Positions 8,837-51,714 are shown, numbered from the stretch's first letter. The stretch: DNA of 64,000 nt from Escherichia coli (GCF_003334305.1 NZ_QOWS01000010.1); one strand, 5' to 3'. A program made the numbers and translations. Notes: generated by a model not told the origin, from the sequence alone.

Positions 8837-8862
8837 GCCGGATGCGATGCTGCGCATCCGGC
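8837..8862. repeat. REP-like GC-rich palindrome between convergent cnoX and fetB
   Basis: gccggatgcgatgctgcgcatccggc, inverted repeat with the gccggatg...catccggc core typical of REP units. Confidence 0.6.
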
Positions 8863-8868
8863 ATCGCA

Positions 8869-9648
8869 TCATTTCTTCTTCAATTGCGTCACCACCAACT
8901 GGTGGCGCGAATTATAAAACTTACGATAGGTTAAATAGCAGGCAATAATGGTCGACAAGCTGGCGGTTGAGAGCAGCATAAAGGTCACCATAATCTGATA
9001 TTTAATCGCCTTCACCGGATCAATCCCGGCAAATATCAGCCCGGACATCATTCCTGGTAAACTCACTAAGCCAACCGTTTTTGCTGAATCGACCGTCGGA
9101 ATTAAAGCCGCGCGAATACTGTCGCGAATCAATATCGCTGAAGCCTGCTTCGGCGTCGCACCAAGACTCAGTTTCTCCTGAATCTGTTGCTGTTCGCTAA
9201 TGACCCGTTGCCCTAAATTGTTGTAACACAACCCCACCGCTACCATGGCGTTACCGGCAATCATCCCGGCGATAGGGATCACCTGCATCGGGATAAATTC
9301 AATCGACCCAGAGAGAATCAGCACCGCCAGGGTAATTCCCGCCCCGACCGTAATGGCAATAAACGATGAGATAAAAGCTTTAGCAATATATTTACTGCGT
9401 TTTTGCGCGTTCCACGCCGCATTAAAGCAGATAAATAACACCATCAATAATGTCAGGCTGGCATCATCCACGCTGAAAATATACTTCAGCACATAGCCGA
9501 CAATAATCAGCTGAATTATCGCTCGCCCGACGCTCCAGAAAATATCTTTCTCCAGCGCCAGTTTTTCTTTATGGCTAATTAAGATTGCCACCACCACCAG
9601 CATTAATGCCAGTGCCAATGATTCGTTAGTAATATTATGCGAGTTCAT
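8869..9648 (-). CDS. fetB: Iron export ABC transporter permease (YbbM family), 259 aa
   Basis: Track ORF 8869..9675; start placed at MNSHNITNESLALAL (complement of 9646-9648); multi-TM. Confidence 0.9.
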   Translation of the reverse strand: MNSHNITNESLALALMLVVVAILISHKEKLALEKDIFWSVGRAIIQLIIVGYVLKYIFSVDDASLTLLMVLFICFNAAWNAQKRSKYIAKAFISSFIAITVGAGITLAVLILSGSIEFIPMQVIPIAGMIAGNAMVAVGLCYNNLGQRVISEQQQIQEKLSLGATPKQASAILIRDSIRAALIPTVDSAKTVGLVSLPGMMSGLIFAGIDPVKAIKYQIMVTFMLLSTASLSTIIACYLTYRKFYNSRHQLVVTQLKKK

Positions 9649-24467: not shown

Positions 24468-24481
24468 AACAAGACGTTATT

Positions 24482-24518
24482 GCCGGATGCGATGCTAGCG
24501 CATCTTATCCGGCCTACG
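24482..24518. repeat. REP unit
   Basis: gccggatgcgatgctagcgcatcttatccggcctacg between convergent ybaL and gsk. Confidence 0.85.
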
Positions 24519-24549
24519 GATGCCATCGTCGTCCGGTCTGGTCGATAAC

Positions 24550-28876: not shown

Positions 28877-28952
28877 TCAAGAAAGGCACCTGAGGCTGAA
28901 ACGGTTAATGGCGAGATAATTTGCGGAAAGTGCAGATGATGAAAAGAAAAAT

Positions 28953-28978
28953 GCCGGATGACACAAAGGTCATCCGGC
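28953..28978 (-). terminator. Intrinsic terminator of htpG
   Basis: Reverse strand gccggatgac-ctttgt-gtcatccggc followed by ATTTTTCTTTTC. Confidence 0.8.
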
Positions 28979-28984
28979 ATGACA

Positions 28985-30859
28985 TCAGGAAACCAGCAGC
29001 TGGTTCATACGACGAATAAACAGGTTCGGATCTTCCAGCGTGCCGCGTTCTGCCAGCAGCGCCTGATCCAGCAGCAGTTCTACCCACTCGCTGAACTTCG
29101 CTTCATCTTCAGTATCTGCCGCACGTTTCACCAGTACGTGATCCGGGTTCAGTTCGAAGATGTATTTCACTTCTGGCACTTTCTGGCCCGCCGCAGCGAA
29201 CAGTTTCGCCATCTGAGTGCTCATTTCGTCCGCGTCGGTCGAAACGATCGCTGGCGTATCGGTCAGACGGTGAGTCAGACGGACATCTTTCACGCGCTCG
29301 CCGAGCAGGGCTTTCACACGGTCGATGAACGGAGTCAGTGCTTTCTCCGCTTCTTTCGCGCTCTCATCAACTTCGTCAGCCAGTTTTTCCAGCGACTCGT
29401 CAACTTTAGACACCGACTGGAACGGTTTACCGTCGAACTCAGTCAGATAGTTCATCATCCACTCATCGATGCGGTCGGAAAGCAGCAGAACTTCGATGCC
29501 TTTCTTACGCAGCAGTTCCAGGTGTGGGCTGCTCTTCGCTGCCGCATAGCTGTCTGCAGTGATGTAGTAGATTTTCTCCTGCCCTTCTTTCATGCGGGAA
29601 ACGTAGTCTTCCAGAGACACGGTCTGCGCAGAAGAATCGGTATAAGTAGAAGCAAAACGCAGCAGTTTGGCGATCGCTTCCTGGTTAGCGAAATCTTCCG
29701 CCGGACCTTCTTTCAGTACCAGGCCAAACTGTTGCCAGAAGGTCTGGTATTTTTCCGCGTCGTCTTTCGCCAGTTTTTCCAGCATTTGCAGCACACGCTT
29801 GGTCAGCGCATTGCGCAGGTTACGCGTTACCGTGCTGTCCTGGAGGATTTCACGGGAAACGTTCAGCGGCAGATCGCTGGAGTCAATCAGACCACGCACG
29901 AAGCGCAGATAGTTCGGCATGAACTGTTCTGCGTCGTCCATGATGAACACACGCTGGACGTACAGTTTCAGGCCGTGTTTATGATCACGGTTCCACATAT
30001 CCCACGGAGCCTGGGACGGGATGTACAGCAGGCTGGTGTACTCCTGCTTACCTTCAACGCGGTTGTGGCTCCAGGTCAGCGGATCATTAAAGTCGTGGGC
30101 GATGTGTTTGTAGAACTCTTTGTACTCTTCATCGGTGATTTCCGACTTGTTACGAGTCCACAGCGCCTGCGCTTTGTTGATTTTCTCCCAGGAGATAACG
30201 GTTTCGCCGTCTTTCTCTTCGCGTTTTTCGATCTCTACCGGCAGCGCGATATGGTCGGAGTATTTGCTGATGATGGAACGCACGCGCCAGTCATCGAGGA
30301 ACTCGTCTTCGCCTTCACGCAGATGCAGGGTGATTTCAGTACCACGATCTTCTTTGGTGATGTCGGCAACGGTATATTCACCTTCGCCAGCCGATTCCCA
30401 GAAGACGCCGTTTTCTGGTTTTTCGCCTGCCGCGCGAGTACGCACGGTCACTTTGTCGGCCACGATAAACGCAGAGTAGAAACCAACACCAAACTGACCG
30501 ATCAGCTGGCTGTCTTTCGCCTGGTCAGAACCCAGGGATTCGAGGAATGATTTGGTACCGGATTTAGCGATAGTCCCCAGATGGTCAATCACTTCGTCGC
30601 GGGTCATCCCCACGCCGTTATCGGAGATGGTCAGCGTGCGCTTGTCTTTATCGAAAGAGACACGAACGCGCAGTTCGCCATCACCTTCGTACAGGTCCGG
30701 GTTAGATAGCGCACGGAAACGCAGCTTGTCCGCCGCATCGGAGGCGTTAGAGATAAGCTCACGCAGGAAGATTTCTTTATTGGAATAGAGAGAATGGATC
30801 ATCAGGTGCAGAAGCTGTTTCACTTCTGACTGAAAACCACGAGTTTCTTGTCCTTTCAT
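28985..30859 (-). CDS. htpG: Hsp90-family molecular chaperone, 624 aa
   Basis: ORF track; GHKL ATPase N-domain (ELISNASDA); recognised HtpG sequence. Confidence 0.98.
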
Positions 30860-31955: not shown

Positions 31956-33887
31956 TCAAATGGGGCGGATACTTTCTTCATCCAGCTCCGCATCGAAGAA
32001 CCGACGCAGGGTCTGAATATTATTATCCGCAATAATGGACTCGCGCGCCTGCGCAAGTTTTTCTTCGTATATCGCCTGACGCCACTCCAGCGGCGTACGC
32101 ACCGCGGGATTATCATCTTCAACGATAGTCAGTTCAACCGTTGAACCTTTTAACGTGCTCAACGCTTCAGCCAGTTTTTGCTGTGCACCGCGGTTGTTCA
32201 AATGCCGCTGAGAGGAGCGCAAATGCAGACATACTGCGTTGTCGCTCTCCTCTTTCCAGGCATTTAAGGCCACCTGTTCGACCAGTTTTGGTAGCGAAAG
32301 TTGACTCACCTGTGCCGCCCACGCGTCGCGCTCAATGGCTTCTGCCGCCAGCTTCGCCGCCAGTTCCGGCGTTTTTTCATGTTCCAGCGCTTTTTTCAGC
32401 GCCTTCGGCGTGGCGACCACTTCTTTTTGCTGCATCACTGGAGTGGTAGCCTTCCAGCGATACGCTTCTTTTTTGGCTGGCGCTTTTTCCAGCGCCGATG
32501 GCACCGGACGCGCCTGAACGCGATCGGTGACCGAAGCCAGTCTTTCCAGCGCAGCGTTATTCACCGGCCGCGCGCGGGTAGCGGCTGCCGGTTCACTCTT
32601 TTTTGCTTTGGTTGCTCCCTGCACGCGCTGCAACTGCTGGCGCGCCGCCAGCACCTGGCTGGTGGTTTCCGGGAGCGGTACAGTCGGTGCCTGCTGCGGC
32701 GCTGATTGCGGTTGCGGCGGCACCTGGGTTGGCGTCATTACTGCCGTTGGCGCGACGGGCGCAAAGGACTGGCGTGGCACTTCTGGCTCAGGCAGAGGCA
32801 TACGTGGATGGAACGCCAGCGCGCGCAGCAGCGTCATCTCAACGCCCATGCGGCGGTCCGGCGCATACGGTAATTCTTTGCGACCAATCAACAGCGTCTG
32901 ATAGTAAAGCTGAATATCCGTCGGCGGTATGGTGCGCGCCAGTTCACGCATCCGCAGCTCAATGGCGGCCATGTCGTTGCCAAGTGCAGCAGGCGAAAGT
33001 TGTACCATCGCAATACGATGCAACAGGCCGAGCATTTCCACCAGCAACGCTTCCCACTCGATACCACGGGCAGCGGCTTCATTAATCAGCGCCATTACGC
33101 GCTCGCCGTTGGCCTCGACCATCGCTTCAACCAGCGACAGCGCCTGATCGTCGTCAAGCGTACCCAGCATCGCACTGACTGCCTGGGTTGAAACCTGGCC
33201 GTCACCGCTGGCAATCGCCTGGTCGGTCAGACTTAAGGCATCTCGCAGGCTGCCTTCAGCGGCGCGCGCCAGCAATTGCAACGCCCGCGGCTCGTGAGCG
33301 ATATGTTCTTCGTTGAGGATGTGCTCAAGTTGATGGCGAATTTGCTCGACATCCAGCGCCTTGAGATGAAATTGCAAACAGCGCGACAAAATCGTCACCG
33401 GCAATTTCTGTGGATCGGTCGTCGCCAGCAGAAACTTAACGTGCTCCGGCGGCTCTTCAAGGGTTTTTAACAGTGCGTTAAAGCTGTGGCGCGACAGCAT
33501 ATGCACTTCGTCGATCAGATAAACTTTGAAACGACCACGCGCCGGAGCGTACTGGACGTTATCCAGCAGGTCGCGGGTATCTTCAACTTTGGTGCGCGAG
33601 GCGGCGTCGATTTCAATCAGATCGACAAAGCGCCCCTGCTCGATTTCACGACAGTTATCGCACACGCCGCACGGCGTCGCGGTAATGCCGGTTTCGCAGT
33701 TTAGCCCCTTCGCCAGCAGTCGGGCGATAGAGGTTTTTCCGACGCCACGGGTACCGGAAAAAAGATAAGCATGATGAATACGCCCTAACGACAAGCCGTT
33801 CGCCAGTGCGGTCAGCACATGTTCCTGGCCGACGACGTCAGCAAAGGTTTGTGGGCGCCATTTTCGGGCTAAGACCTGATAACTCAT
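31956..33887 (-). CDS. dnaX: DNA polymerase III tau subunit (gamma by frameshift), 643 aa
   Basis: ORF track; AAA+ Walker A GTRGVGKT; recognised DnaX sequence. Confidence 0.98.
   Translation of the reverse strand: MSYQVLARKWRPQTFADVVGQEHVLTALANGLSLGRIHHAYLFSGTRGVGKTSIARLLAKGLNCETGITATPCGVCDNCREIEQGRFVDLIEIDAASRTKVEDTRDLLDNVQYAPARGRFKVYLIDEVHMLSRHSFNALLKTLEEPPEHVKFLLATTDPQKLPVTILSRCLQFHLKALDVEQIRHQLEHILNEEHIAHEPRALQLLARAAEGSLRDALSLTDQAIASGDGQVSTQAVSAMLGTLDDDQALSLVEAMVEANGERVMALINEAAARGIEWEALLVEMLGLLHRIAMVQLSPAALGNDMAAIELRMRELARTIPPTDIQLYYQTLLIGRKELPYAPDRRMGVEMTLLRALAFHPRMPLPEPEVPRQSFAPVAPTAVMTPTQVPPQPQSAPQQAPTVPLPETTSQVLAARQQLQRVQGATKAKKSEPAAATRARPVNNAALERLASVTDRVQARPVPSALEKAPAKKEAYRWKATTPVMQQKEVVATPKALKKALEHEKTPELAAKLAAEAIERDAWAAQVSQLSLPKLVEQVALNAWKEESDNAVCLHLRSSQRHLNNRGAQQKLAEALSTLKGSTVELTIVEDDNPAVRTPLEWRQAIYEEKLAQARESIIADNNIQTLRRFFDAELDEESIRPI
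32598..32604 (-). other. dnaX: Programmed -1 frameshift heptamer A_AAA_AAG in dnaX (gamma subunit)
   Basis: Reverse strand ...GCA AAA AAG AGT GAA...; -1 frame reads AAA AAA GAG TGA, giving ...KKE-stop (stop at complement of 32593-32595). Confidence 0.9.
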
Positions 33888-35707: not shown

Positions 35708-35869
35708 ATGTCACTGGAAAATGCCCCTGACGATGTCAAACTGGCTGTCGATTTGATTGTGCTGCTGGAAGAAAATCAGATCCCAGCCCGCACCGTGCTG
35801 CGCGCGCTGGATATTGTAAAACGCGATTATGAAAAGAAATTAACGCGCGATGATGAGGCGGAAAAGTGA
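35708..35869 (+). CDS. ybaM: Small protein YbaM (DUF2496), 53 aa
   Basis: Not in ORF track (<60 aa); ATG 35708 preceded by SD ggagag; translation [53 protein letters not shown]; 13 nt after the priC stop. Confidence 0.85.
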
Positions 35870-35922
35870 GAAATAAATGGGGCCGCTAAATGTCCCCTAA
35901 GATTGTGGGCAAACGCAAAACT

Positions 35923-36020
35923 GCCTGATGCGCTACGCTTATCAGGCCTACACCGCTCCTGCAATACATTGAATTCTTGCGGTTTCGTAGGCCGGATAAG
36001 GCGGTCACGCCGCATCCGGC
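35923..36020. repeat. BIME: two inverted REP units
   Basis: gcctgatgcgctacgcttatcaggcctac (35923-35951) and gtaggccggataaggcggtcacgccgcatccggc (35987-36020), between ybaM and the 3' end of mscK. Confidence 0.85.
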
Positions 36021-36080
36021 ATGAACAACGCGCACTTTGTCAGTAATCTCGGGGCAACTAAATGTCGCCCCCTTTGGTTA

Positions 36081-49416: not shown

Positions 49417-49530
49417 GGGTGGGGGCCCTGCCAGCTACATCCCGGCACACGCGTCATCTGCCTTGGCTGCTTCCTTCCGGACCTGACCTGGTAAACAGAG
49501 TAGCGTTGCGGGAGAACCAACAGAGCCCCC
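49417..49530 (-). ncRNA. ffs: 4.5S RNA (signal recognition particle RNA), 114 nt
   Basis: Reverse complement reads GGGGGCTCTGTTGGTTCTCCCGCAACGCTACTCTGTTTACCAGGTCAGGTCCGGAAGGAAGCAGCCAAGGCAGATGACGCGTGTGCCGGGATGTAGCTGGCAGGGCCCCCACCC. Confidence 0.97.
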
Positions 49531-49606: not shown

Positions 49607-49996
49607 ATGCTGGTTTCTTGCGCAATGCGACTTCACTCGGGCGTTTTTCCAGATTATGCTGAAAAATTACCTCAGGAAGAAAAGATGGAAAAAGAAGATT
49701 CATTTCCCCAACGCGTCTGGCAAATCGTCGCCGCTATTCCCGAAGGCTATGTCACCACTTACGGTGATGTGGCGAAACTGGCGGGATCGCCCCGCGCCGC
49801 GCGCCAGGTGGGCGGTGTGTTAAAGCGTCTCCCTGAAGGCAGCACCTTACCCTGGCACCGGGTGGTTAATCGCCACGGCACAATTTCGCTAACCGGACCG
49901 GATTTACAGCGTCAGCGACAGGCATTACTGGCAGAAGGTGTGATGGTATCGGGAAGCGGGCAAATCGACTTGCAGCGTTATCGCTGGAACTACTAA
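49607..49996 (+). CDS. atl: Alkyltransferase-like protein (MGMT-fold DNA alkylation damage sensor), 129 aa
   Basis: Track ORF 49586..49996; start placed at MLVSCAMRLHSG (ATG 49607). Confidence 0.88.
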   Translation: MLVSCAMRLHSGVFPDYAEKLPQEEKMEKEDSFPQRVWQIVAAIPEGYVTTYGDVAKLAGSPRAARQVGGVLKRLPEGSTLPWHRVVNRHGTISLTGPDLQRQRQALLAEGVMVSGSGQIDLQRYRWNY

Positions 49997-50018
49997 CCCT
50001 CTCCGGGCGGAGAGGGTT
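49995..50018. terminator. Bidirectional terminator between convergent atl and ybaY
   Basis: Perfect inverted repeat aaccctctccg-g-cggagagggtt between the two stop codons. Confidence 0.7.
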
Positions 50019-50026
50019 AACGTCGC

Positions 50027-50816: not shown

Positions 50817-51677
50817 ATGAGTCAGGCGCTAAAAAATTTACTGACATTGTTAAATCTGGAAAAAATTGAGGAAGGACTCTTTCGCGGCCAGAGTGAAGAT
50901 TTAGGTTTACGCCAGGTGTTTGGCGGCCAGGTCGTGGGTCAGGCCTTGTATGCTGCAAAAGAGACCGTCCCTGAAGAGCGGCTGGTACATTCGTTTCACA
51001 GCTACTTTCTTCGCCCTGGCGATAGTAAGAAGCCGATTATTTATGATGTCGAAACGCTGCGTGACGGTAACAGCTTCAGCGCCCGCCGGGTTGCTGCTAT
51101 TCAAAACGGCAAACCGATTTTTTATATGACGGCCTCTTTCCAGGCACCAGAAGCGGGTTTCGAACATCAAAAAACAATGCCGTCCGCGCCAGCGCCTGAT
51201 GGCCTGCCTTCGGAAACGCAAATCGCCCAATCGCTGGCGCACCTGCTGCCGCCAGTGCTTAAAGATAAATTCATCTGCGATCGTCCGCTGGAAGTCCGTC
51301 CGGTGGAGTTTCATAACCCACTGAAAGGTCACGTCGCAGAACCACATCGTCAGGTGTGGATCCGCGCAAATGGTAGCGTGCCGGATGACCTGCGCGTTCA
51401 TCAGTATCTGCTCGGTTACGCTTCTGATCTTAACTTCCTGCCGGTAGCTCTACAGCCGCACGGCATCGGTTTTCTCGAACCGGGGATTCAGATTGCCACC
51501 ATTGACCATTCCATGTGGTTCCATCGCCCGTTTAATTTGAATGAATGGCTGCTGTATAGCGTGGAGAGCACCTCGGCGTCCAGCGCACGCGGCTTTGTGC
51601 GCGGTGAGTTTTATACCCAGGACGGCGTGCTGGTTGCCTCGACCGTTCAGGAAGGGGTGATGCGTAATCACAATTAA
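50817..51677 (+). CDS. tesB: Acyl-CoA thioesterase II, 286 aa
   Basis: Track ORF 50799..51677 (TTG); start placed at [20 protein letters not shown] (ATG 50817). Confidence 0.96.
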
Positions 51678-51681
51678 AAAA

Positions 51682-51714
51682 ATAGCCGGAGGTAAAACCG
51701 TCCGGCTATTTTTT
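51682..51714. terminator. Bidirectional terminator between convergent tesB and amtB
   Basis: A7-atagccgga-ggtaaaaccg-tccggctat-T6: hairpin flanked by A-run and T-run. Confidence 0.85.

Follow-up and report, generated by a model that had tools for sequence, protein, structure and literature searches.

A 64,000-nucleotide (nt) stretch of an Escherichia coli assembly (GCF_003334305.1, NZ_QOWS01000010.1; hereafter the window) carries four canonical repetitive extragenic palindromic (REP) units. Two of them are solo y-type units, at the copA-ybaQ and ybaL-gsk junctions, and the other two are combined between rsmS and mscK in a single bacterial interspersed mosaic element of class 1 (BIME-1). We consider it highly probable that all four belong to the standard E. 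coli REP/BIME family and share the role established for that family. REP/BIME elements have been known in E. coli since 1984, and the four copies and their placement between convergent genes are already known biology. The whole window aligns in reverse orientation with ~462-526 kb of the E. coli K-12 MG1655 chromosome (ppiD to rhsD) at 98-99% identity, and a 3-kb piece around the BIME-1 recurs at 100% identity in many E. coli chromosomes. Gene names were carried over from the K-12 annotation and compared with the open reading frames of the window, and counts of strain variation refer throughout to 5426 complete E. coli genomes.

By definition, a REP is an imperfect palindrome of 30-40 nt that has GTAG 5′ of its hairpin foot, a stem interrupted by a mismatch and a sequence of type y, z1 or z2 (Ton-Hoang 2012). 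The four units of the window are imperfect palindromes of 30-37 nt with a GTAG/CTAC tail, a stem mismatch and y or z1 sequence, and all four are extragenic, lying between annotated genes (Table 1). As published reference we used the REP TGCCGGATGCGGCGTAAACGCCTTATCCGGCCTAC employed by Durrant et al. 2024, which no shuffle of the window matched. Profile hidden Markov models (HMMs) for y and z1 were built from 37 independent BIME-1 copies, nearly all from other genomes and mostly from E. albertii and Pseudocitrobacter. The first-pass annotation, made from the sequence alone, had placed canonical REPs at 17414-17448 and 24482-24518 and a two-unit BIME at 35923-36020; all three calls held, the first as an exact match to the published REP (35/35; HMM E=4e-14), the second with an exact tail (E=2e-6) and the third as z1 plus inverted y (E=9e-13 and 1e-12). 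Only the 24481-24517 unit is unusual, in its inner stem and loop (GCGATGCTAGCGCATC). It begins 14 nt past the stop of ybaL (24467), with another 31 nt separating its end from that of gsk (24550), and the 17413-17447 unit lies between the stop of copA (+), which ends at 17356, and that of ybaQ (-) at 17470.

Repetition within the window and across the species agrees with this assignment. The REP tail TTATCMGGCCTAC has exactly four exact copies in the window, one at each canonical unit, and with up to two mismatches there are 7 matches where 1.6 are expected by chance. Self-alignment had been named in the first-pass annotation as the test that could refute it, and the outcome spoke for it. Self-BLAST of the window paired 17413-17449 with 35985-36021 (95% identity in complementary orientation, E=7e-9), the sole significant repeat between different sites, and short megablast queries containing the units had matches in 5426/5426 E. 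coli genomes, at a median of 18-39 places in each. A REP pattern of fixed spacing had no match across the window because loop lengths vary among units, and searches with the tail, the stem and the full-length unit were used instead. The K-12 RefSeq record has no REP repeat_region features across this stretch, so annotation was unusable as a check, and Rfam gave no family match at any REP site of the window.

The four units also share a structure, folding to -20 to -23 kcal/mol on either strand (z-scores -3.3 to -4.2) with an internal loop that separates outer and inner stems in every dot-bracket structure. Recognition by TnpA-REP, the Y1 transposase also termed RAYT, needs both the GTAG/CTAC tail and a mismatch in the stem (Ton-Hoang 2012); judged by sequence, all four units carry the features that this enzyme would require for binding and cleavage.

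Table 1. REP units, parts of the BIME-1 and its flanks, and other gene-end hairpins of the window
Feature	Coordinates	Strand	Description
Perfect palindrome	8837-8862	.	GCCGGATGCG..CGCATCCGGC; between cnoX (+, stop ends 8806) and fetB (-, stop 8869)
Solo y-type REP	17413-17447	+	35/35 positions of published REP; nhmmer E=3.8e-14; -21.3 kcal/mol, internal mismatch
Short perfect hairpin	19434-19453	.	GCCGGATG stem; between ybaK (+, stop ends 19426) and ushA (-, stop 19463)
Solo y-like REP	24481-24517	+	nhmmer E=1.8e-6; exact TTATCCGGCCTAC tail; -23.3 kcal/mol
htpG intrinsic terminator	28951-28980	-	Hairpin ATGCCGGATGAcc..ggTCATCCGGCAT (28953-28978), then TTTTCTTTTC; terminator scan
Left copy of local hairpin	35880-35898	.	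GGGGCCGCTAAATGTCCCC; adjoins left arm; -6.7 kcal/mol, weak
BIME-1 left arm	35899-35921	+	TAAGATTGTGGGCAAACGCAAAA; family consensus TGAGACTGATGACAAACGCAAAA; alignment of 37 copies
z1-type REP	35922-35951	+	nhmmer z1 model E=8.6e-13; 35923-35952 matches 29/30 positions of published z1
L linker, 35 nt	35952-35986	.	35-nt linker class, shared core; IHF-like site 35962-35974
y-type REP, inverted relative to z1, tail to tail	35987-36021	-	33/35 positions of published REP; nhmmer E=1.1e-12
BIME-1 right arm	36022-36051	+	TGAACAACGCGCACTTTGTCAGTAATCTC; family consensus TGAACAAAGCGCACTTTGTCAGCAATCTGA; alignment of 37 copies
Right copy of local hairpin	36052-36072	.	GGGGCAACTAAATGTCGCCCC; -12.6 (+) / -17.7 (-) kcal/mol
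Perfect hairpin	61140-61164	.	GCCGGATGC stem; between queC (+, stop ends 61125) and fadM (-, stop 61177)

Perfect palindromes at four further gene ends (8837, 19434, 28953 and 61140) are of a different kind, with continuous stems of 9-12 bp and neither the CTAC tail nor the stem mismatch. Two of these places, given as 8837-8862 and 61135-61169, had been described beforehand as REP-like palindromes; they exist and fold well (-21 to -22 kcal/mol), and with HMM E-values of 0.7-3.3 and 0.03 they are not REPs. The palindrome at 8837-8862, with no significant REP score, overlaps a terminator-like hairpin with a T-tract at 8841-8870 (+) in the terminator scan. The one at 61140-61164 (-21.9 kcal/mol; E=0.033, 10.6 bits) is at best a marginal REP relative; it has no U-tract, and the scan gives no terminator-like site there. 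The listed repeats had also been called the only repetitive DNA found in the window, which is correct at the BLAST level for repeats at different sites. Two GCCGGATG hairpins had been missed and were revealed by the enrichment of GCCGGATG in the window (14 matches, 3.05 expected): one is 19434-19453 (-19 kcal/mol, z=-5.9), which the terminator scan did not pick up, and the other is 28953-28978, the hairpin of a terminator that lies upstream of adk and is separated by 4 nt from the stop codon of htpG (28985-28987; -21.3 kcal/mol, z=-6.0).

It is conceivable that all seven GC-rich palindromes are intrinsic (Rho-independent) terminators, alike through convergence of their stems and not as a repeat family. 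All seven stand at 3′ ends, 28951-28980 and 8841-8870 pass the terminator scan, and the GCCGGATG stem is also found in plain terminators at other loci. The four canonical units, however, have no U-tract and fail the scan, recur at dozens of places per genome and share 30-35 nt that include the loop, the mismatch and the CTAC tail outside the stem. We therefore regard convergence as a very improbable account of the whole set. For the four canonical units it is refuted by full-length identity outside the stem; for the four perfect palindromes, the terminator reading remains the best. Perfect GCCGGATG-stem palindromes are ordinary 3′-end hairpins, among them one clear intrinsic terminator, and should not be counted among REPs.

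Some further regularities were seen at such gene ends. On the minus strand, two unrelated genes, fetB (8869-8871) and htpG, both end TGA-TG-NN-AT-GCCGGATG…, with the GCCGGATG stem beginning 6 nt past each stop codon. Self-complementary palindromes unrelated in sequence to REPs also occupy the convergent junctions ybaY/ybaZ (49994-50019) and amtB/tesB (51677-51714) and are presumably bidirectional terminators.

The element between rsmS and mscK spans 35899-36051 (153 nt), in agreement with the published BIME-1 size of ~140 bp, and consists of two arms that enclose, in this order, a z1 REP, the 35-nt L linker and an inverted y REP; as a whole it forms a long imperfect palindrome. In the literature, BIME-1 joins z1 and y through a long and well-conserved L linker, in which a site for integration host factor (IHF) is often found (Ton-Hoang 2012). 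The window element has z1 and y in inverse orientation, the conserved 35-nt linker and a single copy that is present in some isolates and absent from others; this one z1-L-y unit lies within a 211-nt intergenic region and forms no tandem array. Conservation among the 37 aligned copies reaches past the REPs, into a left arm of 23 nt and a right arm of ~30 nt whose outer portions are mutual inverted repeats. The left arm of the window is identical to the consensus at 18/23 positions. We equate the two arms with the motifs that Gilson and Bachellier describe as external 'B' and 'A'.

To place the linker, we surveyed one genome per species with a gapped pattern scan of genome contigs (TTATCAGGCCTAC, a gap of 10-40 nt, GTAGGCCGGATAAGG), which recovered the linker family and 152 Z-Y pairs from other genomes. 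Linker lengths are bimodal, at 13-16 nt and at 35 nt (n=31); common to the longer class is the core CTGCAATATATTGAATTTGCA, which reads CTGCAATACATTGAATTCTTGC in the window. Outside the REPs, no part of the element is better conserved than the L linker, whose core is kept across genera. When the 37-nt linker served alone as a BLAST query against all E. coli genomes, only the orthologous copy came back, because at a database size of 28 Gb short relatives of ~80% identity fail the E-value limit. E. coli-type Z-Y pairs were also encountered in short contigs of unrelated assemblies, Desulfosporosinus sp. OT (a 262-nt contig) and a Bacteroidales metagenome-assembled genome, where they are likely to be enterobacterial contamination.

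All three REP loci differ between strains. At rsmS-mscK, 3881/5426 genomes carry the BIME-1 allele, and ~1545 (~28%, including ST131 and O157:H7) have an allele shorter by 170 nt, in which the entire 38-nt intergenic region is a single strong bidirectional terminator, AAAAAATAAAGGGCGGCATCACTGTCGCCCTTTATTGT (-21/-17 kcal/mol on the two strands). E. albertii carries the orthologous BIME-1 with 1-3 substitutions per motif relative to E. coli. The allele difference extends into the coding end of RsmS (YbaM; window 35708-35869), whose last 8-9 residues read …LTRDDEAEK in the BIME-1 allele versus …LQSDETSQSE in the empty one; the two intergenic haplotypes are therefore old. Divergence of the empty-allele hairpin from both hairpin copies of the window leads to the same conclusion, and we rejected recent insertion or excision as the relation between the two alleles. 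In Salmonella, Citrobacter and Klebsiella, rsmS and mscK are separated by an rpn-type gene (Pfam Transposase_31, of the recombination-promoting nuclease family) that Escherichia lacks, and because of this gene, polarization of the filled and empty alleles with these outgroups yields no ancestral state.

REP content varies at the two solo-REP loci. Intergenic lengths at copA-ybaQ of 257, 313, 414 and ~515 nt across E. coli fit 0, 1, 3 and 5 REPs and stepwise gain or loss of y-z2 units; K-12 has y-z2-y-z2-y versus the single y of the window (17357-17469), with identical flanks. At ybaL-gsk (24468-24549), the single-REP allele of the window occurs in ~588/5426 genomes (~11%), and K-12 has a z2 plus y-like pair. 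Variation at the window loci matches the rule that BIME-1 is present or absent and BIME-2 variable in length among isolates (Bachellier 1997, in the form in which PMC1187871 cites it).

The BIME-1 is in turn a target for insertion. At 35941-35951 its z1 REP contains ATCAGGCCTAC, a z1 tail published as the natural target of IS621, an insertion sequence of the IS110 family with a bridge-RNA recombinase. In E. coli SCU-152, IS621 is inserted in exactly this z1 REP, at ...ATCAGGCCT/AC (the slash marking the insertion point), with the CT core on both sides. The same place in an O111:H8 strain holds IS110-family fragments together with an IS3 element. Strain differences of these kinds (BIME-1 presence or absence, 0/1/3/5 REPs, IS621) are expected and should not be over-read as novel rearrangements.

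Since the REP copies are multi-copy, strictly extragenic and variable between strains, they behave as non-autonomous mobile or recombinogenic DNA. The first-pass annotation overlooked this strain-variable, mobile-element-like nature, as it did the BIME-1 class and its linker with a DNA-level IHF-site motif. Given the variability of REP insertions between strains, function cannot be assumed site by site.

The first-pass annotation had put most of its sites between convergent genes or at operon ends. On the gene map all five listed sites lie between convergent genes (cnoX/fetB, copA/ybaQ, ybaL/gsk, rsmS/mscK and queC/fadM), and 19434-19453 likewise marks the convergent ybaK/ushA junction. Across E. 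coli, ~60% of REPs lie between convergent genes, and ~30% of convergent intergenic regions contain a REP (bioRxiv 10.64898/2026.03.23.713779). The role that the first-pass annotation proposed, in mRNA 3′-end stabilization or termination, is the established, context-dependent view of REPs. The terminator scan found no canonical intrinsic terminator at the three canonical-REP junctions, and such a role would be compatible with the hairpins of the units and with terminator-poor junctions. Transcribed within the 3′ untranslated regions of converging genes, hairpins of about -20 kcal/mol would block 3′ exonucleases and, depending on context, might partly attenuate read-through with the assistance of Rho.

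At rsmS-mscK, an ancestral bidirectional terminator would have been split by the BIME-1. The two copies in the window are weaker (-6.7 and -12.6 kcal/mol, plus strand), and the copy nearer each gene has no U-tract on that gene's strand, so transcripts of rsmS and mscK probably extend into or across the BIME-1 before ending. REPs less than 16 nt from a stop codon are reported to lower translation of the upstream gene, and by its position 14 nt past the ybaL stop, the 24481 unit would fall inside that range.

An alternative is that the rsmS-mscK element acts primarily at the level of DNA, as an IHF-bound architectural site or as a gyrase-related or topological barrier between converging units. 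BIME-1 is the IHF-binding class, also called RIP/RIB. Linkers of this class are reported to bind IHF, and the L linker, better conserved than anything else outside the REPs, contains an IHF-type motif through which it could recruit IHF to the DNA. On the other side, gyrase cleavage is reported to be enriched at y REPs of BIME-2, but is not reported for BIME-1 in that paper, and gyrase binding should not be assumed for the window BIME-1 or for the copA-ybaQ y REP. A 2026 study of a model REP likewise found no long-range REP-REP contacts and no nucleoid compaction. We think a primarily DNA-level role unlikely.

For the REP/BIME family reading, with its role at gene ends, several considerations weigh on the other side. 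Its functional part, as applied to the window copies, would be carried over from family-level literature, and that literature is itself mixed. Any function at rsmS-mscK must be dispensable, as ~28% of complete genomes lack the BIME-1. As read from the sequence, the IHF-like site (bottom strand, ATTCAATGTATTG) matches 8/9 specified positions of the consensus WATCAANNNNTTR, a degenerate motif for which such a match is weak evidence alone.

The duplicated hairpin at the ends of the BIME-1 is the only part of this analysis that may be new. Immediately outside the two arms, GGGGCCGCTAAATGTCCCC and GGGGCAACTAAATGTCGCCCC form an imperfect direct repeat, the right copy of which ends 8 nt ahead of the mscK stop codon (36081). 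The left copy retains the A-rich upstream context, and the right copy the T-rich downstream context, of the single terminator in the empty allele. We scored the left flank of each of 27 independent BIME-1 loci against its own right flank by local alignment and compared these scores with those of between-locus pairs. Flank similarity exceeded the 95th percentile of between-locus pairs at 12/27 loci (1.35 expected) and the 99th percentile at 9/27 (0.27 expected). The left repeat copy mostly ends 22-24 nt before the z1 unit and the right one starts 29-33 nt after the y unit (at +39 in two loci), which places the copies at or near the arm boundaries. The repeats are locus-specific GC hairpins of 12-34 nt, usually with a T-tract on the y side. 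A strong hairpin adjoins at least one arm in 18/24 loci, a figure that partly reflects location at 3′ ends, since the controls were mostly coding.

Comparison of filled with empty alleles gave the same result at 5/5 loci: one hairpin when the site is empty and two, one per side, when it is filled. The rsmS-mscK site is filled in the window and K-12 and empty in ST131 and O157:H7. E. albertii is filled at the other four: metE-ysgA (empty in E. coli J53), glmS-pstS (empty in two E. coli alleles), ecnB-sugE (empty in E. coli O16:H48) and fbaA-mscS (filled also in most E. coli and empty in a minority). At fbaA-mscS the duplicated segment is ~33 nt long, T-tract included, the element lacks its left arm and the junction falls in a short arm-like stretch (CAAAAGCAA), which hints at a homology-assisted or template-switch event and not at a fixed-stagger cut. 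The flanking repeats were also considered as part of the mobile unit itself; this was rejected, for they vary by locus and are single copy in empty sites.

The hairpin duplication looks like an insertion footprint. We raise as a tentative possibility that BIME-1 is a unit of ~150 nt, comparable to a MITE (miniature inverted-repeat transposable element), that integrates at terminator hairpins and duplicates the whole target hairpin, whatever its length, leaving a footprint so far unreported. Should this be right, the rsmS-mscK element would be one such hairpin-duplicating insertion. A footprint the size of a hairpin would point to a structure-directed mechanism and against semi-random insertion or a transposase with a fixed stagger. 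One candidate is a pair of staggered cuts, at either foot of an extruded palindrome; another is a switch of template across the hairpin during replication.

Recent work describes the mechanism of REP/BIME insertion in vivo as not established and terms insertion semi-random. Hairpin duplication at BIME-1 is not stated anywhere in the full-text literature that was accessible, a coverage that leaves outside the 1990s papers on BIME-1 'excision'. If true, the proposal would offer a testable handle on the spread of REP/BIME and would explain the clean presence or absence of BIME-1 between strains; a reproducible footprint of one versus two hairpins would constrain the insertion mechanism.

More broadly, the copies may be selfish non-autonomous mobile DNA, with a MITE-like BIME-1, that came to lie at gene ends through insertion or tolerance at terminator hairpins and whose functions are incidental. 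We see even chances for this account. Polymorphism of presence and copy number among strains favours it, as do the inverted-repeat arms of BIME-1, the locus-specific direct repeats that adjoin both arms, the single hairpin of empty sites and the strong hairpins beside the arms. It also accords with a literature that sees REPs as domesticated transposon derivatives whose insertion mechanism is unresolved. Selfish origin does not exclude function, however: the same BIME-1 has been kept in E. coli and E. albertii at the low divergence given above, the core of the L linker is conserved across genera, and published experiments show effects of REPs on neighbouring genes.

Elsewhere in the window, Rfam matches at the gathering threshold comprise the small RNA ChiX (sroB; 18742-18825, -), the programmed-frameshift element of dnaX (32559-32623, -) and the 4.5S RNA of the signal recognition particle (49426-49522, -).

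Set beside known systems, the REP/BIME assignment of the four units is close. The units at 17413-17447, 35922-35951 and 35987-36021 show no difference from the y and z1 REPs of E. coli (Stern 1984; Gilson; Bachellier; Ton-Hoang 2012), whereas 24481-24517 departs from the y type in its inner stem and loop. Within the BIME-1 family the window copy differs by point substitutions only, its linker reading TACATTGAATTC versus the consensus TATATTGAATTT. BIME-2 is characterized by tandem y and z2 units with short linkers, and the window contains neither a z2 unit nor a tandem array; the 17413-17447 unit is a one-unit allele of what is a BIME-2 locus in K-12.

Intrinsic terminators resemble the canonical REPs in being GC-rich hairpins at 3′ ends, but the REPs lack T-tracts. 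Hairpin and T-tract occur together at 28951-28980 (-) and 8841-8870 (+), the hairpins at 19434 and 61140 fall short of the scan criteria, and the rsmS-mscK allele that lacks the element has the form of a textbook bidirectional terminator. With MITEs, BIME-1 shares terminal inverted-repeat arms, a length of ~150 nt, the absence of coding capacity and direct repeats of the target at its ends. The two differ in the duplication itself: that of MITEs is fixed at 2-10 bp by a DDE transposase, whereas the flank repeats of BIME-1 comprise the whole local hairpin, and the Y1 HUH transposase associated with BIMEs is of a kind that normally produces no target duplication.

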